A stretch of DNA of 11,751 nt from a virus. Both the position numbers and the translations under genes were made by a program. The first letter of the stretch is position 1; every line of letters begins with the position of its first letter. The notes beneath the pieces were generated by a model that did not search any database, had not been told where the DNA came from, and saw nothing but the letters and a program-made list of their open reading frames with translations. Of the stretch, positions 3,072 to 11,549 are shown piece by piece. The stretch lies in the UHGV virus genome UHGV-1586850. One strand, written 5' to 3'.

Positions 3072-3983
3072 ATGGGACGCACCAAATCACCGATTAACAC
3101 TGAACTGAACGCCGAGGTACCGCTGTCGGATGATCTCAATGTCAGTCTGAACGCCATGACACAGCATCGTATGGAGATCATGCAGCAGTTTGGCGATGGT
3201 CAGCCCTATGAGCGTGATCGCATAGTTCATGAGGCTCGGTTTTATATGGCACAGAGCGCTGAGGCCATGCTGGAAGCAGGTAAACGACTTATTATTCTCA
3301 AAGAAAATGAACCTCACGGGGACTTTGTTGGAATTGTAGAAGAACAACTTGGTCTGCATGTGCGCGCAGCACAACGAATGATGAAAGCATCTTTGAAATA
3401 CCTTTCACCAAAACTAGAGCCAAAAGCGACAACGTTGTCGCTTTTAGGTAAGGCAAAATTATTTGAACTTGTTGCTGAAGATGACGACGACCTTGCTGAA
3501 CTGGCCGACGGTGGCACAGTTGCCGGACTGACGCTTGACGATGTTGATCGCATGTCAGTACGTGAATTGCGTCAGGCCCTGCGCGAAGCGCGCGAAACCA
3601 ACGCAGCACAACAGCGCGTACTCGCCGACAAAAATGAAAAAATAGATTCACTCTCCACCAGACTGGAGAAGAAATCCCGTATTCAGCCGCCTGAGCCTGA
3701 TGAGGAGGTTAAGAAGCTGCGGGCGGAAGTAACAGCATTAGCGGTTGAGGCGGAATCTGCTATCGCCGTCCGACTGTCCAGCGCTTTTGAGACGCTGTGC
3801 GCATATTGTGCTGAAAACATGATTGATACCCCCAGAGACTTCATGGCAGGCCTGGTCTGTCAACTGGAAAGCACAGCGCGTAGCCTGCGCTCCACATTTG
3901 ACCTGCCGGACGAGCCAACAGGCAATGCAGCGCCTTCATGGCTGACTGAGCCGACGCCACAGATTAACGGGCTGGAGGCATAA
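3072..3983 (+). CDS. Hypothetical protein (303 aa) with an acidic stretch and predicted coiled-coil
   Basis: SD AGGAG (3061-3065) 6 nt before the ATG. Acidic run AEDDDDLAELADGG and a heptad-like charged helical region. Stop is 3 nt before the transposase start (translational coupling). Confidence 0.65.
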   Translation: MGRTKSPINTELNAEVPLSDDLNVSLNAMTQHRMEIMQQFGDGQPYERDRIVHEARFYMAQSAEAMLEAGKRLIILKENEPHGDFVGIVEEQLGLHVRAAQRMMKASLKYLSPKLEPKATTLSLLGKAKLFELVAEDDDDLAELADGGTVAGLTLDDVDRMSVRELRQALREARETNAAQQRVLADKNEKIDSLSTRLEKKSRIQPPEPDEEVKKLRAEVTALAVEAESAIAVRLSSAFETLCAYCAENMIDTPRDFMAGLVCQLESTARSLRSTFDLPDEPTGNAAPSWLTEPTPQINGLEA

Positions 3984-3986
3984 CCA

Positions 3987-5756
3987 ATGAATGCTGCCCT
4001 GACTGAACGACTGGTTTATGTCGCCCGCGCGGCACGTGACGCGGGGCATGGTAAACGCGGCGCAGTATACGACGCTGCCTGTGCTGAACTTGGCATGTCC
4101 CGCGCCACTCTGCTGCGCAGGCTGAAGGAGGTATCTGTGACTGATAAACGCAAAAAACGCGCCGATGCCGGGCGCAGCGCCCTGACCCGCGACGAAGCCG
4201 CGCTGATATCTGCCACACTGCGTGAGGCCACCCGCAAGAACGGTAAGCGTCTCTATTCCATCGCGGATGCAGTGGAAACCCTGCGGGCTAACGGCTTTAT
4301 ATCCGCAGGCAGAACAGATGAAACCACCGGTGAGTTTTTCCCGTTGTCCGAAGATGCCATCAGCCGAGCCCTGCGTAACTATGGCCTGCACCCGGAACAA
4401 CTGGATGCCCCTGCACCGCATACCGAAGTGGCCAGTCTGCACCCCAATCATGTCTGGCAGATTGACGCCTCACTCTGCACGCTTTACTACCTGAGCAATG
4501 GACATAAAGGGCTGCAGGTGATGGACAGCGCGAAATTCTACAAAAACAAGCCCGCTAACCTTGCCCGTATCGCCAGTGACCGCGTGTGGAGTTACGAGAT
4601 TACCGACCATGCCAGCGGCTGGATTTACGTTGAGTATGTGACGGGTGCGGAATCCGGTGAGAACCTGTGTTCTGTGCTTATCAACGCCATGCAGGAGCGT
4701 GGCGGCGCAGACGTGCTGCACGGCGTGCCAAAAATACTCTATCTCGACCCCGGCTCGGCAAACACCGCGGGTATGACGAAAAACATGTGCCGCTCACTGG
4801 GCATCGACCTGATAGCGCACAAGCCGCATAACGCCCGCGCCACCGGACAGGTGGAAAAGGCGCGTGACATTATCGAACGCAAGCTGGAGCCGGGTCTGAA
4901 GTTCCGGCCGGTTCACAGTCTGGAAGAACTCAACGCGCTGGCCGCGAAATGGCGCAGCCACTTTAACGCCACGGCTGTTCACAGCCGCCACGGTAAAACC
5001 CGCACGGATATCTGGCTGAAGATTACTGCTGAGCAGCTGAAAAAAGCGCCTTCCGTTGAGGTATGTCGTGAACTGGCTGTGGCGGCACCAGAACTCCGCA
5101 AAGTCACGCCAAAACTTCGTGTCTCGTTCCGGGGCACTGAATTTGACGTATCAACGGTACCGGGCGTACTGGTCGGTGAAAAACTGATGATTACCCGTAA
5201 CCCGTGGCGCAGCGATGTGGCACAGGTGGTTCTGACCGGTGAGGACGGCCACGAGACGTTCTTCCTGGTCGAAGAGGTCAGAAAGAACGAGTTTGGCTTT
5301 GCTGAAGGCGCGGCGGTATTTGGCGAAAGTTACAAAGCCCTGCCGGAAACCCCGGCGCAGATGGCGGCAAAAGAAACCGAAGCGCTGGTCACCGGTACAG
5401 ACAACGCCGCAGATGCAGCTGCCGCACGCAAGGCGAAGGCGCTGCCGTTCGGCGGGCGGCTTGACCCGTATAAACATATTGATGACGCCACACTTCCGGC
5501 CTGTATACCGAAGCGTGGTCAGGCCTCTGACGTACGCGGGCCGCGCACTGAACAACGTCCCATGACTTATGTGGAGGCCGCGAAAGCCCTGCGCGATAAG
5601 TTCAGCGCCAACGGCTTTACCTGGACGCCGGAACATTACCGCCAGTTAACGGCACAGTATCCGGACGGCGTACCGGAAGCCGCACTGGATGAAGTCATGG
5701 CCACGCTGACCACGCCGGCCCGCAGCAGCGTTATCAGTATTGTTAACGGCAACTGA
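3987..5756 (+). CDS. DDE transposase/integrase-fold protein (Mu A-like; DD(35)E catalytic core)
   Basis: 589 aa, SD GGAGG (3974-3978). Candidate catalytic triad D160 (HVWQIDAS, nt 4464-4466), D254 (ILYLDPGS) and E290 (ATGQVEKA), with the 35-residue D-to-E spacing typical of the rve/retroviral-integrase superfamily. HTH-like N-terminus. Followed directly by an ATPase gene, as in Mu A/B. Confidence 0.85.
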   Translation: MNAALTERLVYVARAARDAGHGKRGAVYDAACAELGMSRATLLRRLKEVSVTDKRKKRADAGRSALTRDEAALISATLREATRKNGKRLYSIADAVETLRANGFISAGRTDETTGEFFPLSEDAISRALRNYGLHPEQLDAPAPHTEVASLHPNHVWQIDASLCTLYYLSNGHKGLQVMDSAKFYKNKPANLARIASDRVWSYEITDHASGWIYVEYVTGAESGENLCSVLINAMQERGGADVLHGVPKILYLDPGSANTAGMTKNMCRSLGIDLIAHKPHNARATGQVEKARDIIERKLEPGLKFRPVHSLEELNALAAKWRSHFNATAVHSRHGKTRTDIWLKITAEQLKKAPSVEVCRELAVAAPELRKVTPKLRVSFRGTEFDVSTVPGVLVGEKLMITRNPWRSDVAQVVLTGEDGHETFFLVEEVRKNEFGFAEGAAVFGESYKALPETPAQMAAKETEALVTGTDNAADAAAARKAKALPFGGRLDPYKHIDDATLPACIPKRGQASDVRGPRTEQRPMTYVEAAKALRDKFSANGFTWTPEHYRQLTAQYPDGVPEAALDEVMATLTTPARSSVISIVNGN

Positions 5757-5766
5757 GGAGGGAAAC

Positions 5767-6933
5767 ATGCTGGTACTGAAGCAGCAACTGAAAGAGGCCC
5801 GTATTCCACAGGCGGTGGTGGCGAGAGCTGTCGATGTTTCTGAGGCCACGCTGGCCCAGATTGTGAATCATAACGCGTGGCCCCGCACCAGCCCCGGAGA
5901 AGTGCGCCGGCGTCTTGCGTCCTGGCTGGAAAGTCAGGGGATTGATACAACGAAGAGTTTTGATGCTGTACAGGGCGCGGCCACGCCCCGTACAGCGGGT
6001 ACCACAGATAAAACGAGCCTCAGTGAGGAAGAGAATATGTTACTCAAAAAACAGGTGTTATTTCCAGCAACCAAAAAAGCGTTTGGTCTTTTCCGTGACC
6101 CGTTCGCCGACGAAGCCATGCAGGGTTCTGATGATGTGTTCACCACCCCGGATATTCGCTACGTGCGTGAGGCGTTGTACCAGACAGCCCGTCATGGTGG
6201 GTTTATGGCCGTCATCGGTGAGTCCGGTGCGGGTAAATCCACGCTGCGCCGCGACCTGACTGAACGTATCAACCGCGAGAATGCGCCGGTAATTGTTATC
6301 GAGCCATACATCATCGCTATGGAAGACAACGATGTGAAAGGGAAAACCCTGAAGGCAGCAGCGATTGCCGAAGCCATTATCAGTACCATCGCACCACTGG
6401 AAAGCATCAGACGCAGTCAGGACGCCCGCTTTCGCCAGTTGCATCGCGTCCTGAAAGACAGCAGCCAGGCGGGGTTCAGCCACGTTCTGGTGATTGAGGA
6501 GGCCCACAGTCTGCCCATTCCGACACTGAAACACCTCAAACGCTTTTTTGAGCTGGAGTCCGGTTTCAAAAAACTGCTGTCCATCGTGCTGATTGGCCAG
6601 CCGGAACTGGCGACAAAACTGTCTGAACGCAATATGGAAGTCCGTGAAGTCGTTCAGCGCTGTGAGGTGGTCGAACTTCTGCCTCTGGACAATAACCTTG
6701 AAGAGTTTCTGACGTTCAAACTGCAACGGGCCGGTAAACAACTGACGGACATTATGGACGCCAGCGCAGTGGATGCCATACGTGCCCGCCTGAGCAATCC
6801 GGGAAGTCATCGTAAAAATATGGTCAGCCTGCTGTATCCGCTGGCCGTCAGTAACCTGGTAATAGCCGCCATGAATCTGGCCGCTGAAATCGGGGTTCCA
6901 CAGGTCAACGCTGACGTTGTCAAAGGGGTTTAA
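5767..6933 (+). CDS. AAA+ ATPase transposition helper (Mu B-like / ExeA-type)
   Basis: Walker A GESGAGKST and Walker B VLVIEEAH; N-terminal HTH-like segment. Start placed at ATG 5767 with SD GAGGAGGG (5754-5761), not the TTG at 5740 used by the ORF track. Confidence 0.8.
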   Translation: MLVLKQQLKEARIPQAVVARAVDVSEATLAQIVNHNAWPRTSPGEVRRRLASWLESQGIDTTKSFDAVQGAATPRTAGTTDKTSLSEEENMLLKKQVLFPATKKAFGLFRDPFADEAMQGSDDVFTTPDIRYVREALYQTARHGGFMAVIGESGAGKSTLRRDLTERINRENAPVIVIEPYIIAMEDNDVKGKTLKAAAIAEAIISTIAPLESIRRSQDARFRQLHRVLKDSSQAGFSHVLVIEEAHSLPIPTLKHLKRFFELESGFKKLLSIVLIGQPELATKLSERNMEVREVVQRCEVVELLPLDNNLEEFLTFKLQRAGKQLTDIMDASAVDAIRARLSNPGSHRKNMVSLLYPLAVSNLVIAAMNLAAEIGVPQVNADVVKGV

Positions 6934-6935
6934 TA

Positions 6936-7205
6936 ATGAAATCCACCACAGGTATCAACCAGCAAATCAGCAAAGTGCAGTCAGCCATTATGGCGCTTAA
7001 GGCGACGAACACGGATGTACAAAGCATCACCATCAGGGGTAACAAACCTGTCATCCGCGTTTCCCGGAGTGCGCATTGCATGCGCATGCTTGAGCAGGGA
7101 AAGGCCTGTTATCTGTATACCGGTCATGACCACAGGGGACATTTCCGTCAGGGCGTTTTCGAACTGCACGGCTGTCGCGTCGTGTGGCCGGAATCTTTGT
7201 GGTAA
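6936..7205 (+). CDS. Hypothetical early protein (89 aa)
   Basis: SD AAGGGG (6923-6928) 7 nt before the ATG; begins 2 nt after the B stop. Unrecognised. Confidence 0.55.
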   Translation: MKSTTGINQQISKVQSAIMALKATNTDVQSITIRGNKPVIRVSRSAHCMRMLEQGKACYLYTGHDHRGHFRQGVFELHGCRVVWPESLW

Positions 7206-7232
7206 TCAGCACAACAGGAGGAGTCATAAAAT

Positions 7233-7763
7233 ATGGCAAAAAGTACAAAAGGGGCAAAACGTATCAAAGCCGCAGCAGCACTCTGGGTGCCGGGGACACG
7301 CGAAGAGGTCATTGAGGGAATCAGACTGCTTGGTGACGCGCAACGTGAACTGGTCAGGGCTGAAACAGAAATGAATGACACCATTGGCGACATCACCGCA
7401 CGTTATGCCCCGCTCACCGAGAGCCTGAAAAAACGCATGGCCGAACTGCAGTCCGGTATTCAGACATGGTGTGAGGCACACCGTGATGAACTGACCGGCA
7501 ACGGGAAGGTGAAGTTCGCTAACCTCACCACCGGCGAGGTGCAGTGGCGAAACCGTCCGCCGTCAGTCAGTATCCGTGGGGCGGATAATGTTATTGAATT
7601 ACTGAGACGTCTGGGGCTTGAGCGCTTTATCCGTGTAAAGGAGGAAATAAATAAAGACGCCATCCTGAATGAAAAGGACGCCGTGAAAAATATTCCCGGT
7701 ATTACCATAAAAAGTGATATTGAGGATTTTTCAATAATTCCTTTTGAGCAGAATGTGCAGTAA
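7233..7763 (+). CDS. gam: Gam-like host-nuclease inhibitor (Mu Gam family, Ku-like DNA-end-binding protein)
   Basis: 176 aa. Conserved blocks matching my recollection of Mu Gam: AKRIKAAAA, ETEMND, WCEAHRDELT, RPPSVSIRG, GLERFIRVKEEINKDAIL, IEDFSIIPFEQ. Strong SD AGGAGGA (7216-7222). Confidence 0.9.
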   Translation: MAKSTKGAKRIKAAAALWVPGTREEVIEGIRLLGDAQRELVRAETEMNDTIGDITARYAPLTESLKKRMAELQSGIQTWCEAHRDELTGNGKVKFANLTTGEVQWRNRPPSVSIRGADNVIELLRRLGLERFIRVKEEINKDAILNEKDAVKNIPGITIKSDIEDFSIIPFEQNVQ

Positions 7764-7859
7764 AAACAGCATATAAGCTATTTAAAACAGCCTTTTCTTT
7801 TTTATTCCGGCATCAGCGCCGTGGGCTTCTGCACGCCGGAAACAGAGGAGAATTAAATC

Positions 7860-8054
7860 ATGATATTTAAATGTATTCAGTGCGAGAGGGATATAACAGC
7901 CCTGCGTTTTCACAGCGCCATCGCCGTGATGTCCGGTAAATACCACATCCCTGCGGTACGCGTCACCCTGGTCTGCCCGTACTGCAGCCAGCATTTTTCG
8001 GCAGACGTGCCCGTCATGGAATTCTCCCGCCCTGACAGGGAGGACTCGCAATGA
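7860..8054 (+). CDS. Small zinc-ribbon-like protein (64 aa)
   Basis: Two CxxC pairs (CIQC near the N-terminus, CPYC near residue 40). SD GAGGAG (7844-7849). Confidence 0.5.
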   Translation: MIFKCIQCERDITALRFHSAIAVMSGKYHIPAVRVTLVCPYCSQHFSADVPVMEFSRPDREDSQ

Positions 8055-8323
8055 TTACCCCACAGGAAGCACGACAGCGCACCCGAACCCTTGTTGAACA
8101 CTATGTCAACGAGTGTGAATGCCGCGACCTCACCGATGTGAAGCACGTCCTGACGGCGCTAATCAGCATGACCGCTCAGGCCATTGTGGCGACCAACGGA
8201 AAGGCGGCTGCCCTGCAGGTACTGGTGAACACACTCACCCACACGGCAGAGCACGATGTGCCGTACCGGATGGAAACCACTGCAGAAGGCGGCCTGAACA
8301 TCACCGTCGACCGGAAACACTGA
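8051..8323 (+). CDS. Hypothetical early protein (90 aa)
   Basis: ATGA start/stop overlap with the upstream gene (8051-8054). Unrecognised. Confidence 0.55.
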   Translation: MITPQEARQRTRTLVEHYVNECECRDLTDVKHVLTALISMTAQAIVATNGKAAALQVLVNTLTHTAEHDVPYRMETTAEGGLNITVDRKH

Positions 8324-8332
8324 GGGCGCGGC

Positions 8333-8638
8333 ATGACACGGAACACCGAACTCACCCGCACCGCCCTCTACCGTCTGGCCCTGCAGCGTTTCGGGCCGGA
8401 CGCACAGGCCCTGAAACTGACAGAAGAGGCCGCTGAACTGGCGGCCAGTGCCGCCCGCAACCTGAACGGACAGGGCAGCGAAAGTGACCTCGCGGCAGAG
8501 CTGGCAGACGTGGAAATCATGACAGAGCAGCTGCGCCTTCAGGGAATGGACCGGCTGATTGACTTCCACAAACAGAAAAAACTGGAACGCCTTGCCGCAC
8601 GGCTGGGCGTCATGTACACCGGAGATACTGAACAATGA
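8333..8638 (+). CDS. MazG-like all-alpha nucleotide pyrophosphohydrolase (putative)
   Basis: 101 aa with EExxE (TEEAAEL) followed by ExxD (AAELADVEI) acidic motifs in predicted helices, as in MazG/HisE-type NTP-PPases. SD GAGGG (8322-8326). Confidence 0.5.
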   Translation: MTRNTELTRTALYRLALQRFGPDAQALKLTEEAAELAASAARNLNGQGSESDLAAELADVEIMTEQLRLQGMDRLIDFHKQKKLERLAARLGVMYTGDTEQ

Positions 8639-9318
8639 CAGACCAGGATAAACACATTGAGAAACTGAAAAAGTTGCTGGCGCTGGCCGCATCCGGCAAC
8701 CCTCACGAGGCCGCTCTGGCACTGCGCCGTGCCCGTAAACTGATGGATGTTCACGGCATCACACATTCCGACATCGCCATGAGTGATATTGATGAAACCA
8801 TCAGTCACTACTGGCCGACAGGCAGCCTCCGTCCACCGCGCTACATGCTGGGCCTGATGAACATCATCCGCGAGGCATTTGGTGTTAACTCCATCATTCA
8901 CCCCGGCACATATCCGGGTGTGGGGTTCTACGGCAACCGGGAACGGGCTGCACTGGCTGCGTACACCTGGGAAGTGCTGGCCCGTCAGCTGAAAAAGGCG
9001 CGTCAGCAATATATCAGCGCACAGAACAAAAGAATAAAAACTGCCACCCGTACCAGCCGTGGTGACCAGTTTGCTGAAGGCTGGGTGCTGGCCGTTATCA
9101 GTGAAATACAGTCCTTCGCCCTGACCGATGACGAACGTGAACTGATGCAGCAGTGGCTGGAACATAAATACCCGCAGACGCAAACCACCAGGGCGCGTAA
9201 ACCGGGAAGAAGCCGCAATGGCGACGCCTCGCGCTATGCGGGGTTTCGTGAAGGGCAGAACGTCAGACTGCACCGCCCGGTCAGTGGGCAGGAACAACAG
9301 AAACTGGAGGCCAGATGA
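8635..9318 (+). CDS. Conserved phage early protein with DUF2786-like N-terminus (227 aa)
   Basis: ATGA overlap with the upstream gene. N-terminal KLKKLLALAASGNPHEAALALRRARKLM resembles the DUF2786 motif common in prophage early regions. Confidence 0.65.
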   Translation: MTDQDKHIEKLKKLLALAASGNPHEAALALRRARKLMDVHGITHSDIAMSDIDETISHYWPTGSLRPPRYMLGLMNIIREAFGVNSIIHPGTYPGVGFYGNRERAALAAYTWEVLARQLKKARQQYISAQNKRIKTATRTSRGDQFAEGWVLAVISEIQSFALTDDERELMQQWLEHKYPQTQTTRARKPGRSRNGDASRYAGFREGQNVRLHRPVSGQEQQKLEAR

Positions 9319-9545
9319 TTACGCTATCAGGTAAAAGCCGGAAATTAAAAGCCTGCCGAATATCTGCCAGATACCTTTTTGCCCGCGCCTTTTTTAAGAA
9401 CGTCAGGCCGGGGATCACAATTGGTGTTATTGCCGGACGCGAACAGGTTGAAAAATACATGTCAGGTGCATGGTGGAATAACGACCCTGTCATTGCTGCC
9501 CGTAATATTCATATCAGTTGGGGGGATATTCAGAATGACGGCTGA
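9315..9545 (+). CDS. Hypothetical small basic protein (76 aa)
   Basis: ATGA overlap with the upstream stop (9315-9318). Unrecognised. Confidence 0.45.
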   Translation: MITLSGKSRKLKACRISARYLFARAFFKNVRPGITIGVIAGREQVEKYMSGAWWNNDPVIAARNIHISWGDIQNDG

Positions 9546-9750
9546 ATCTGTTGTATGTGCCCTGTTCTGGTATTGTTTTGTCGGTTGGTGTACTGCTGAA
9601 CTGCACCGCCGTTCAGGGTTTTATTCACGTTACAGTGGTGCTGGCTACTGGATTAGCTGGTCGGTGATGTTCCTGTGCTGGCCTGTGGCGCTTCCTTTAT
9701 ATGTCGATTATATCGGTGGCGCAGGTAAAAGGAGCAACGATGATGACTAA
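9535..9750 (+). CDS. Small membrane protein (71 aa, two predicted TM helices)
   Basis: In-frame ATG at 9535 preceded by GGGGGGA (9520-9526). Hydrophobic segments VVCALFWYCFVGWC and WISWSVMFLCWPVALPLYV. The ORF-track start at 9379 is unsupported. Confidence 0.5.
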   Translation: MTAESVVCALFWYCFVGWCTAELHRRSGFYSRYSGAGYWISWSVMFLCWPVALPLYVDYIGGAGKRSNDDD

Positions 9751-10192
9751 ACAACGTCTTATCCAGCTCATTCATATTGCCCGTAATGAACTGGGTATGG
9801 ATGAAGACACCTACCGCCAGATGTTACAGGGGCTGACCGGTAAAGCCTCAACCAAAGGAATGGATACCACACAACTAAACTGCGTGCTGGAATCCATGAA
9901 AAGGAAAGGCTTTCGCGTTAAGCCTGCCGGAAAAGCCAGCTCCGGTTTACCGCTGGATAACCATCCGCAGTCCAGGAAAATCCGTGCGCTATGGCTTGAA
10001 ATGGCTGCTGCCGGCATTGTTCGTGACCGTTCAGAAAATGCATTAGCGAGGTGGATCAAGCGGGAAACGGGCATCAGCGCCCTGCGCTGGCTCAGTACTG
10101 AACAGGCAAGCAGTGTTATTGAGAAACTGAAGAAGTGGCAGCGCAGAGCTGCGGGAGTCAAACATGAGCGACCTGAATCAGTTTCGAAGTAA
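9740..10192 (+). CDS. gemA: GemA-like protein (Mu gp16 / DUF1018 family)
   Basis: SD AAAAGGAG (9727-9734) 5 nt before ATG 9740. N-terminal TKQRLIQLIHIARNELGMDEDTYRQML matches the gp16/GemA signature as I recall it. Sits immediately upstream of mor, as in Mu. Confidence 0.65.
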   Translation: MMTKQRLIQLIHIARNELGMDEDTYRQMLQGLTGKASTKGMDTTQLNCVLESMKRKGFRVKPAGKASSGLPLDNHPQSRKIRALWLEMAAAGIVRDRSENALARWIKRETGISALRWLSTEQASSVIEKLKKWQRRAAGVKHERPESVSK

Positions 10193-10562
10193 AGGGCCGG
10201 AACTCCTGGTGGAGCTGGCACAGCATACCTCTGAGACCGTTCGCGAGATTATTGATATTGAGCCCGCAATTGCCGACCAGATTGGTCAGGCCGTCGCGAA
10301 CCGAATGATGCAGGTCTGGGGCGGGCAAAACGTTTATTTCCCGATGGGCATGGTATGGAAGGTCAGTCAGCGCGACCGGGAAATCTTCAGGGAGTTTAAC
10401 GGACGCAACCACCACGAACTGGCCCGCAAGTTTGGTGTTTCGCTTCAGTGGGTCTACAGCGTGGTTAAGCGGGTCAGAAAAGAAGAACTGGATCGGATGC
10501 AGGGCAGGTTGTTTGATGAAGATCTGCCAGAGGAGACGAAAGACGTTAACAAATCCAGATAA
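10164..10562 (+). CDS. mor: Mor-like transcriptional activator (Mor/C family)
   Basis: 132 aa. C-terminal GGQNVYFPMG ... FREFNGRNHHELARKFGVSLQWVYSVVKR matches the conserved Mor/C HTH region (compare Mu Mor GGGQVYIP ... FNGRN ... YGV ... VYK). Last gene before the intrinsic terminator. Confidence 0.85.
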   Translation: MSDLNQFRSKGPELLVELAQHTSETVREIIDIEPAIADQIGQAVANRMMQVWGGQNVYFPMGMVWKVSQRDREIFREFNGRNHHELARKFGVSLQWVYSVVKRVRKEELDRMQGRLFDEDLPEETKDVNKSR

Positions 10563-10605
10563 TTCCTGCTTGTTAAAGTCCTTTCAAAAATCTCCTTATT
10601 GTATA

Positions 10606-10638
10606 AAAGCACGGTAGACCCCTTACCGTGCTTTTTTT
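10606..10638 (+). terminator. Rho-independent terminator ending the early operon
   Basis: Stem AAAGCACGGTA (10606-10616) / TACCGTGCTTT (10624-10634), 7-nt loop GACCCCT, then a run of T's to 10638. Confidence 0.8.
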
Positions 10639-10676
10639 ATGCTCTCTCTTTAGTATTCAGGATGCAGGGAGAAAAT

Positions 10677-11309
10677 ATGTTTGACGTTTCGTTGTTAAAT
10701 CTGCCATGGGCAACACTGGTGACCCTGACCAGTGGCTATATTGGGTATTTTATTGCGAATGTGGGACTGAAGGATCACCACAAGCCCATTGAGGTGACTT
10801 TTTCTTCGCTGATTTTTGGCCTGACAGCAATGATGGCTTACCAGGCTGTTATGTGGGCAGGTCTGAATGCCTGGCTGGCAACACCACCAGCACTTCTGTG
10901 TGCCGTTACATGCGGTGCGTGGTGGCGCAGGTACGGTCGCAAATGGATGTACAGATTACTGTGGAATAATGATATTTCATGGTCTGACGATACCAGCTCA
11001 GCATGGCAGGCAATGTTTGATCAAACAGGCTTCAGCGTTACCGAGGTCAGAGTGATTCTTCGCGATGGTTCCGGTATGATGTCACGGCTGCCAGGGAACT
11101 TTGAAGAGTGGCCTAACGGTCCGTTTACCCTGGGGAATAAAGGCGATATGGTTCTTTACGTCACGCACAGCAGCCCTTCAGGCAGTAACGAATGGGAAGA
11201 GTATAAAGGCGTGGTTGATAAGTACTGGGGAGCTCTGGCAACCTATATTCCAGCAGATCAGATTGCCAGAGTGGAGATCAGGCGCGTTCGTGCAACGAAC
11301 GATGAATGA
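10677..11309 (+). CDS. Integral membrane protein (210 aa; three N-terminal TM helices plus a soluble C-terminal domain of about 125 aa), function unknown
   Basis: SD AGGGAG (10665-10670) 6 nt before ATG 10677. Hydrophobic segments at about residues 9-31, 40-63 and 68-83. The ORF-track start at 10599 lies inside the terminator hairpin and is rejected. Confidence 0.7.
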   Translation: MFDVSLLNLPWATLVTLTSGYIGYFIANVGLKDHHKPIEVTFSSLIFGLTAMMAYQAVMWAGLNAWLATPPALLCAVTCGAWWRRYGRKWMYRLLWNNDISWSDDTSSAWQAMFDQTGFSVTEVRVILRDGSGMMSRLPGNFEEWPNGPFTLGNKGDMVLYVTHSSPSGSNEWEEYKGVVDKYWGALATYIPADQIARVEIRRVRATNDE

Positions 11310-11312
11310 TGT

Positions 11313-11474
11313 TTATTTTTTCCCTGGGGCAGGGGCTGCCGGCATAGTGGTTTTATTGGCAGAGGAAGACGATTCTCCTTTTCTACCGGAATCGCGCTCG
11401 AACGTCACGATGTGCTTGCTTTTGGGCTTTTCTGAGTAATCCAGGCTATCATGCTTATTGTTTTGAGTAGTCAT
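11313..11474 (-). CDS. Possible small hydrophilic ORF (53 aa), speculative
   Basis: ATG (complement of 11472-11474) preceded by AAGGA (complement of 11483-11487) at 8-nt spacing. Low-complexity product MTTQNNKHDSLDYSEKPKS... Below the ORF-track size cutoff. Confidence 0.2.
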   Translation of the reverse strand: MTTQNNKHDSLDYSEKPKSKHIVTFERDSGRKGESSSSANKTTMPAAPAPGKK

Positions 11475-11549
11475 TGGAATCATCCTTTTTGTTGCGGGTC
11501 ATGTTTCAGCAAACTCGATTCTAAGTTGCCAGGAAGGATGATTTCAATG
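11472..11549. repeat. 16-bp inverted repeat (15/16 match) with 46-bp spacer
   Basis: CATTGGAATCATCCTT (11472-11487) versus the reverse complement of AAGGATGATTTCAATG (11534-11549). Each arm read outward contains AAGGA-N8-ATG, an SD plus start codon. Confidence 0.45.

Follow-up and report, generated by a model that had tools for sequence, protein, structure and literature searches.

An eight-gene block of a B3/BcepMu-type transposable prophage of Escherichia coli, with an exchangeable interval inside a conserved early frame

The stretch of DNA analyzed here, from UHGV virus genome UHGV-1586850 (11,751 nucleotides (nt), one strand, 5' to 3'; hereafter the window), corresponds to the early arm of a B3/BcepMu-type transposable (Mu-like) prophage of Escherichia coli, and our subject is a block of small open reading frames (ORFs) that occupies positions 6936-9750, between the gene for the B-type transposition ATPase and gemA. 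We read this block as a semi-essential early (SEE)-type segment of the prophage's early operon, in which a frame of genes for DNA metabolism is combined with exchangeable, host-directed cargo, and we assign this reading a probability of roughly 0.65. An original prediction had presented the block as a run of seven ORFs, candidate host-takeover or anti-defense genes, in the position of the semi-essential early region of phage Mu, between the transposition ATPase and gemA/mor. The position and the extent are exact, with 6936 the ATG of the first gene (O1), 9750 the stop of the last (O8) and all ORFs on the + strand; the count has to be corrected, as eight ORFs exist and the prediction's own text names eight. 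Its gene-by-gene description, namely an 89-amino-acid (aa) protein, Gam, a CxxC zinc ribbon, a 90-aa protein, a MazG-like protein, a DUF2786 protein, a 76-aa basic protein and a 71-aa protein with two transmembrane (TM) segments, agrees with ours. The block and its boundaries are composed as follows (pI, isoelectric point; PGAP, Prokaryotic Genome Annotation Pipeline).

5767-6933, + strand: B-type transposition ATPase (ExeA/AAA_22 family; 'ExeA family protein' in PGAP), left boundary of the block
6936-7205, + strand: O1, 89 aa, basic, pI 9.9
7233-7763, + strand: O2 (Gam), 176 aa, Mu Gam / Ku-like DNA-end-binding family, PF07352
7764-7859, no strand: the one large intergenic gap (96 nt); a weak hairpin lies at ~7805-7841
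7860-8054, + strand: O3, 64 aa, zinc ribbon, C5-x2-C8 ... C39-P-x-C42, phrog_3401 (1.6e-40)
8051-8323, + strand: O4, 90 aa, phrog_3691
8333-8638, + strand: O5, 101 aa, MazG-like, phrog_2245
8635-9318, + strand: O6, 227 aa, basic, pI 10.0, DUF2786 and DUF7168
9315-9545, + strand: O7, 76 aa, basic, pI 10.4, without recognizable domain, phrog_3681 (2.1e-54)
9535-9750, + strand: O8, 71 aa, predicted two-pass membrane protein, phrog_6436
9743-10192, + strand: gemA (gp16 family), PF06252 (1.3e-40), start taken from PGAP, right boundary of the block
10164-10562, + strand: mor, late or middle transcription activator, PF08765 (1.1e-43), final gene of the early operon
10605-10643, + strand: intrinsic terminator, a 13-bp stem followed by a T-run, which closes the early operon

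The eight ORFs are genes. PGAP/RefSeq annotates exactly the same eight, most of them under the name 'hypothetical protein', all eight proteins match PHROG families (E values of 1e-14 to 1e-77), and a purine-rich, Shine-Dalgarno-like motif lies 5-9 nt 5' of every start. The tight packing with ATGA overlaps noted previously is found at three joins, O3/O4 (8051), O5/O6 (8635) and O6/O7 (9315); in addition, O8 shares 11 nt with O7 and 8 nt with gemA, while the remaining gaps measure 2, 27, 96 and 9 nt. Comparison with a 75%-identical relative, a Klebsiella-type E. coli prophage designated locus L024, yielded ratios of nonsynonymous to synonymous substitution rates (dN/dS) of 0.21 for O3, 0.15 for O5, 0.12 for O6, 0.14 for O7 and 0.11 for O8, from which it follows that these five are real genes. 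The corresponding ratios for polymorphisms (pN/pS), pooled over eight or nine loci, were 0.07-0.08 for B, 0.18-0.26 for Gam, O3, O5, O6, GemA and Mor, 0.27-0.29 for O1, 0.43 for O4 and 0.45 for O8; they lie under 0.5 for every gene and attest to purifying selection on all genes that were testable. A contrary explanation, that some ORFs of the block are annotation noise, can point to the six ORFs without a Pfam family above threshold and to the prevalence of 'hypothetical protein' among the PGAP names, but the PHROG matches, the dN/dS values well below 1 among diverged orthologs, the pooled pN/pS values, the conservation of the Shine-Dalgarno-like motifs and of the coupling, and four O3 cysteines that stay unchanged even at 22% identity make it exceedingly improbable.

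A consensus scan detected no sigma-70-like promoter on the + strand within the block, and the only + strand terminator candidates within 6936-9750 were three weak sites with stems of 6-7 bp. Because the block thus contains neither a detected promoter nor a strong terminator, and a strong terminator follows mor, co-transcription of the block with A and B is likely. The hairpin in the Gam-O3 gap was considered as a terminator and rejected, its fold z-score of -1.57 not being significant and its T-run preceding the stem; the scan gave no promoter in this gap either. A repeat search of the block returned short chance matches only, and Rfam contributed no family anywhere in the window.

In the scheme that we infer, both for co-transcription and for every biochemical activity (that of Gam included), the eight coupled genes would be transcribed from the early promoter together with A and B and expressed with them upon induction or infection, the transcript ending at the terminator after mor. 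The frame layer, comprising O1, Gam, O3 and O6, would serve phage DNA metabolism during replicative transposition: Gam would bind double-strand ends in the manner of Ku and shield them from RecBCD and other exonucleases, and O6 would dimerize through an N-terminal helical hairpin and use a KH-like domain for binding of nucleic acid or a replication partner. The cargo slots, comprising O4, O5, O7, O8 and optional inserts, would supply small proteins that act on the host. Among these, O5 would hydrolyze (p)ppGpp or aberrant (d)NTPs such that the cell stays permissive and nucleotide- or alarmone-dependent abortive responses are blunted, and O8 could be an envelope or superinfection-exclusion factor.

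Across relatives, the Gam-to-GemA interval is exchangeable cargo inside a conserved frame of B, O1, Gam ... GemA, Mor. Gam is kept in 20 loci from other species, which were located through Gam itself. In prophages of Dickeya, Symbiopectobacterium and Brenneria, whose B proteins are 81-85% identical, B, O1, Gam, GemA and Mor are kept in order, but the interval differs: that of Brenneria consists of a zinc ribbon of the O3 type plus a lipoprotein-like ORF of 64 aa, without O4-O8, that of Symbiopectobacterium contains a zinc ribbon and MazG together with two further ORFs, one of 132 aa and one lipoprotein-like, and that of Dickeya contains MazG, a 152-aa ORF with a match in its C-terminal part to a PHROG labeled 'host nuclease inhibitor', and a membrane protein of 105 aa. 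In a Burkholderiaceae relative, an O6 homolog stands alone in the interval. E. coli copies of the block vary as well: between O5 and O6 they carry either no additional gene, one (71 aa) or two (127 aa and 71 aa), the MazG slot can be occupied by ORFs of 69 and 169 aa with the MazG-like part inside the 169-aa protein, O7 is replaced or missing in some copies (swapped for a 135-aa ORF in locus L031 and absent from L029), and O6 is truncated in some. Locus L024 lacks O4 and carries a DUF3164 gene (5085-5696) in place of Gam, and phage B3 likewise has DUF3164 in the Gam slot (locus L034, 4310-4933). In both, a DUF2786/DUF7168 gene lies downstream of DUF3164, immediately so in B3. The shared slot suggests that Gam and DUF3164 may be functional alternatives. 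Searches with O1, O4 and O5 each matched only two to four phage records, all from Escherichia or Klebsiella.

The junction between O5 and O6 is an insertion hot spot, at which the 71-aa gene (phrog_3958) is present in many E. coli copies, including those of strain EC958 and Escherichia phage PhiKM. The inserted DNA spans 3246-3461 in locus L025 and 3233-3824 in L023, and the product of the 127-aa insert gene aligns with the C-terminal part of PHROG profiles that are far longer.

Gam is the only block protein that can be assigned securely from its sequence. It matches PF07352 with an E value of 7.8e-41 and a score of 139.9 bits (cutoff 28.3), the alignment extending from residue 23 to residue 169 and over positions 1-148 of the 149 in the profile, and among the PHROGs it matches phrog_491 ('Mu Gam-like end protection', 3.6e-73) and phrog_18351 ('host nuclease inhibitor', 2.3e-70). 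This full-length match and the same size class leave no difference from the Mu Gam / Ku family detectable in sequence. Shielding of DNA ends from RecBCD is established for the family and is, by analogy, most likely also the role of O2. O3 is a zinc ribbon as judged by its two family-wide CxxC knuckles: C5, C8, C39 and C42 are invariant in five orthologs at 22-53% identity, all of which sit directly after Gam or DUF3164, and a 70-aa ORF of Brenneria matches the same family, phrog_3401.

A competing explanation holds that the block consists mostly of helpers of phage replication, transposition or regulation rather than of factors for host takeover or anti-defense, with O1 a cofactor of B, O3 and O6 DNA- or RNA-binding proteins and O5 a nucleotide-pool sanitizer. 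We regard this as possible, although somewhat unlikely for the block as a whole. O6 matches DUF2786 (PF10979; E 4e-11, 43.0 bits against 23.9) and DUF7168 (PF23771; 5e-26, 91.4 bits against 25.5), in that order from N to C terminus, as does the corresponding B3 protein, ORF5. An AlphaFold2 model built on 38 homologs (predicted local distance difference test score (pLDDT) 87, predicted TM-score (pTM) 0.78) has an N-terminal helical hairpin corresponding to DUF2786, a beta-alpha-beta-beta-alpha core, long helices and a conserved basic C-terminal tail. Homologs of O6 were found in 178 phage records, mostly transposable phages of Pseudomonas (the B3 group), Ralstonia, Shewanella and Pasteurella, and further ones in siphoviruses of Xanthomonas, Stenotrophomonas and Janthinobacterium. 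In one of these, Xanthomonas phage Mallos (locus L033, 2160-4675), a nucleoside triphosphate (NTP) pyrophosphohydrolase and a DUF2786 protein lie between a Cas4 exonuclease and the DNA polymerase/helicase, a pair that echoes the O5-O6 pairing of the block. Wide conservation, from E. coli to Pseudomonas phage B3 and the Mu-like phages of Ralstonia, Shewanella and Pasteurella, together with the replication-module setting in Mallos, points to DNA metabolism rather than counter-defense, and O6 accordingly looks like a DNA-metabolism helper. The strongly basic character of O1, O6 and O7 (pI 9.9-10.4), the KH-like core of O6 and the fixed place of O1 next to B also favor helper roles. Against such roles for the block in general, the Brenneria relatives, with A and B 81% identical, lack O4-O8 altogether but retain A, B, Gam, GemA and Mor as intact ORFs, and other E. 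coli copies lack O7 or have a truncated O6, from which it follows that O4-O8 are not universally required; in addition, the GXXG loop that is the signature of KH domains is lacking from O6. We retain the reading of the block as an SEE-type segment in which O6 belongs to the frame and the products of the more freely exchanged genes would be directed at the host.

O1, another protein of the frame, is adjacent to B in the close relatives examined, save for insertions of extra genes in Dickeya and Symbiopectobacterium, and it may be a partner of B. Its structure model is confident (pLDDT 90.6) and adopts a minimal alpha/beta fold with a weak resemblance to Pol-beta-type nucleotidyltransferases. 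In an alignment of 36 family members, the only conserved residues that stand out are C48, C80, W84 and E86; neither the G[SG] motif nor the catalytic [DE]x[DE] carboxylates are present, the sole conserved acidic column being E86 near the C terminus, and the core strands carry no conserved carboxylate. An active nucleotidyltransferase was consequently rejected, the catalytic carboxylates being absent across all 36 members. When 1.84 billion representatives were searched exhaustively by HMMER with O1, just 85 clusters emerged, in which genuine members measure 80-118 aa; large WD40 and ankyrin proteins among the hits were dismissed as spurious, repeat-driven matches. A fold search of BFVD retrieved uncharacterized proteins only, and comparison of the O1 profile with B3 ORF10 gave an hhalign probability of 9%. 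The B-O1 junction is not inviolable: an extra 86-aa ORF (L003, 5398-5658) and a 119-aa DUF2528 protein (L004, 5294-5653) belong to the Dickeya and Symbiopectobacterium relatives.

Among the cargo, O5 is a protein for which a biochemical activity can be proposed. Its sole strong match is to phrog_2245, an automatically built family named 'nucleoside triphosphate pyrophosphohydrolase' (3.8e-34), and the PGAP name is identical. Within its EExxE...ExxD acidic motif, E31, E35, E56 and D59 are invariant in six orthologs, down to 56% identity, and position E32 is lysine in one of the six. Three orthologs score 18.7-19.2 bits against the PRA-PH cutoff of 21.3, such that sub-threshold matches recur over the motif region. 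O5 is thus a probable MazG-type all-alpha NTP pyrophosphohydrolase. A tblastn search of 50,697 phage records with O5 matched four, from Escherichia and Klebsiella only. A published precedent for counter-defense by such a protein is the phage MazG-like protein Atd1 (bioRxiv 10.1101/2022.06.09.495361), a (p)ppGpp hydrolase that affords protection from the toxicity of TIR-STING and retron-TIR. Both Atd1 and O5 are short, single-domain phage MazG-like proteins with an acidic motif and are encoded among accessory genes, but the tblastn search gave no match to any Pectobacterium phage, which suggests that any relationship of O5 to Atd1 is at best distant. MazG-like enzymes of other phages act on dNTPs. 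A role for O5 as a nucleotide-pool sanitizer for replication would be an equally simple explanation as one modeled on Atd1.

The 90-aa protein O4 stands out for its variability and its narrow distribution. The search found 40 relatives at 62-94% identity, and those with a named source are all from E. coli but for one partial Pseudomonas entry; full-length variants are 67-92% identical. O4 is missing from the Dickeya, Brenneria and Symbiopectobacterium relatives, as from L024, and in locus L026 it is 79% identical while its neighbors are 97-99% identical. It is the fastest-evolving soluble protein of the block, its pooled pN/pS standing against 0.19-0.26 for its neighbors, and the N-terminal half of its variants resembles a mosaic of two haplotypes. 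Positive selection is not claimable for O4: a pN/pS of 0.43 is below 1, and wherever values approach 1, the pairs compared have fewer than 12 substitutions. The block's most unusual members are O4 and O1, and one may ask whether either represents a new anti-defense or host-takeover factor. In favor of O4, variants with only 62-94% identity are located within prophages that otherwise agree at 97-99%, and its pN/pS is roughly double that of the adjacent genes. On the sequence evidence we consider this doubtful; O1 could in that event act, for instance, through binding of a nucleotide signal or through modulation of B. Searches of the Protein Data Bank (PDB) by sequence with O1, O4, O5 and O6 returned nothing meaningful.

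Several results weigh against the reading of the block as a frame for DNA metabolism carrying host-directed cargo. The division into frame and cargo was drawn from a few dozen loci. In the collection of phage records, none of O1, O4, O5, O6 and O7 matches phage Mu, and for these five proteins the analogy with Mu is consequently positional only. O5 falls under the Pfam thresholds (14.9 bits against 21.3 for PRA-PH and 15.7 against 22 for MazG), and a PDB search with the O5 profile found no relative. The pattern seen in O4 is one of elevated change and allele shuffling, that is, of relaxed or variable constraint. The structure prediction and fold comparison that had been proposed as a check brought, for O1 and O6, resemblances to nucleotidyltransferases and to KH domains, both weak (Z no higher than 6.0 for O1 and 7.4 for the DUF7168 core of O6) and both without the signature motifs; in the O6 family, no GXXG is conserved across residues 58-68, and G63 is lost in distant members. 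The patterns used for comparison were the alpha-beta-beta-alpha-beta core of nucleotidyltransferases for O1 and the type I KH topology, beta-alpha-alpha-beta-beta-alpha, for O6.

At the distal end of the block, O7 and O8 have their own patterns of exchange. O7 has homologs of 64-71% identity outside the Mu-like phages, in P22-like Salmonella phages and in a bat-gut siphovirus, and by this distribution is a horizontally mobile small accessory gene. The 71%-identical homolog of Salmonella phage vB_SalP_ABTNLsp11242 (locus L035, 2471-2692) lies in the ea accessory region, where it adjoins adenine and cytosine DNA methyltransferases and a TraR/DksA gene. In the O8 product, one hydrophobic/aromatic segment covers residues ~5-21 and a second residues ~38-58 (Kyte-Doolittle values of 1.5-1.65; Wimley-White -8 and -13 kcal/mol), and the designation of O8 as a two-TM protein is a hydropathy estimate only. 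A second allele of O8, of 67-68 aa and 39-41% identity, occurs within prophages that are otherwise 96-98% identical, and in Dickeya, Brenneria and Symbiopectobacterium the O8 slot holds small membrane or lipoprotein-like ORFs. Small early membrane proteins or lipoproteins, for example T5 Llp and phi80/HK022 Cor, block receptors. O8, and possibly O7, could by this token be lysogenic-conversion or superinfection-exclusion factors that alter the envelope or block the entry of competing phages, and the two predicted membrane segments, the two alleles of about 40% identity and the occupation of the slot in relatives by a TM protein or by lipoprotein-like ORFs (MIIGF(V/I)LLVSAC...) would suit such a function. 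The O8 gene, however, is part of the lytic early operon and overlaps both O7 and gemA, and the scan detected no promoter belonging to it, for which reason its expression in the lysogen is not expected; nor is there homology to known exclusion proteins. On balance we judge this explanation improbable and continue to place O8 among the cargo of a lytic, SEE-type segment.

Known systems offer several points of comparison for this segment. The closest analogue by position is the SEE region of Mu, which comprises kil, gam, sot, arm, cim, gemA and gemB/mor (PMC4553209). Like that region, the block lies between the transposition ATPase gene and the late-activator gene (here mor, preceded by gemA), on the same strand as A and B and without a strong internal terminator; Gam, GemA and Mor homologs are present, and the region is less conserved than the late region. 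It differs in that the transposase and ATPase of this phage are of the B3/BcepMu type (rve and ExeA/AAA_22) and are not close relatives of MuA and MuB, and in that no homolog of Mu kil was recognized in the block. The gene order corresponds to that of the early region of B3 (ORF13 to ORF1) and of BcepMu-like phages. In B3, the plan is DUF3102, A, B, four small ORFs, DUF3164, DUF2786/DUF7168, two ORFs, GemA and Mor, with the B counterpart, ORF11, annotated as 'DNA transposition protein'; the differences are that DUF3164 replaces Gam, that four small ORFs rather than one separate B from that slot, and that the O6 homolog is only 34% identical to O6. The P22-like phages (Lederbergvirus) resemble the prophage in carrying the O7 homolog amid small non-essential early genes of the ea region, but they are integrase-based rather than transposable and have O7 alone in common with it. 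Finally, transposable Pseudomonas phages of the DMS3/D3112 type encode Aqs1/Tip, which disables the type IV pilus ATPase PilB (PMC13436744); these are small proteins from the same broad kind of phage, and their existence illustrates that such phages do encode host manipulators.

Taking these comparisons with the results for single genes, a role in host takeover or anti-defense, as originally proposed, is by analogy plausible for part of the block. It is favored by Gam, by the MazG-like O5 with its precedent in Atd1, by the mosaic interval, by the fast evolution of O4 and O8 and by the mobility of O7. It is not favored for O6, which points toward DNA metabolism, or for O1, which is fixed beside B, and for the six unknown ORFs the analysis produced no host target and no tie to a defense system. 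Scans of all eight proteins against NCBIfam and PADLOC gave no matches, the PADLOC models describing defense rather than anti-defense; Gam alone among the block proteins bears the PHROG label 'host nuclease inhibitor'. In the literature on DUF2786, on Mu-like prophages of sequence type 131 (ST131) and on PhiKM, we found no functional study of the block genes, and a preprint on transposon sequencing (Tn-seq) of phages did not cover transposable phages. The region is already annotated in RefSeq, its genes belong to existing families of phage proteins, and it is ordinary for such phages, a typical variable early region of the transposable kind. Its use is as a short, well-delimited list of candidates, with O4, O5, O7 and O8 first and O1 as a possible partner of B; should any of these small ORFs counter defense or manipulate the host, it would be a common and readily testable E. 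coli phage-host factor.

The prophage is indeed common. Of 5426 complete E. coli genomes, 640 contain the block at 95-99.7% identity, almost always in the chromosome, and carriers include ST131 strains such as EC958, the ST131 reference strain. With the prophage in about 12% of complete E. coli genomes (roughly 1 in 8), its early accessory genes would be expressed in many clinical strains if it were induced. At the DNA level, the block shares 96% identity with phage PhiKM, which GenBank places in Bcepmuvirus. In one genome the prophage interrupts yehQ. Strain AH21C062 (NZ_CP196276.1) has an IS1 element within the block by which gam is apparently split, two Gam-family fragments and an IS1 transposase being annotated.

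The other features of the window flank the genes described above.

1192-1956, + strand: D12-class N6-adenine DNA methyltransferase (Dam-like), upstream of the repressor and outside the block
2073-2564, - strand: helix-turn-helix repressor, divergent, facing the Ner-like gene
2512-2700, + strand: Ner-like gene
between the Ner-like gene and transposase A, + strand: winged-helix protein gene, listed with the DUF3102 protein
3072-3983, + strand: 303-aa protein with a weak DUF3102 match just under the Pfam cutoff, preceding transposase A
3987-5756, + strand: transposase A, rve-type
10677-11309, + strand: 210-aa protein without a Pfam match, just inside the prophage end
11313-11483, - strand: small ORF, just inside the prophage end

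The Dam-like methyltransferase may have an anti-restriction or regulatory role for the prophage. The 303-aa protein occupies the same position as B3 ORF13, a DUF3102 protein, and its copy in PhiKM is only 77% identical while its neighbors are 98-100% identical. The terminator at 10605-10643 falls within a 236-aa ORF with a TTG start in the program-made list of ORFs, and the real downstream gene therefore probably begins at 10677, in agreement with PGAP. That gene (10677-11309, + strand) and the small ORF opposite it (11313-11483, - strand) look like cargo at the prophage terminus.

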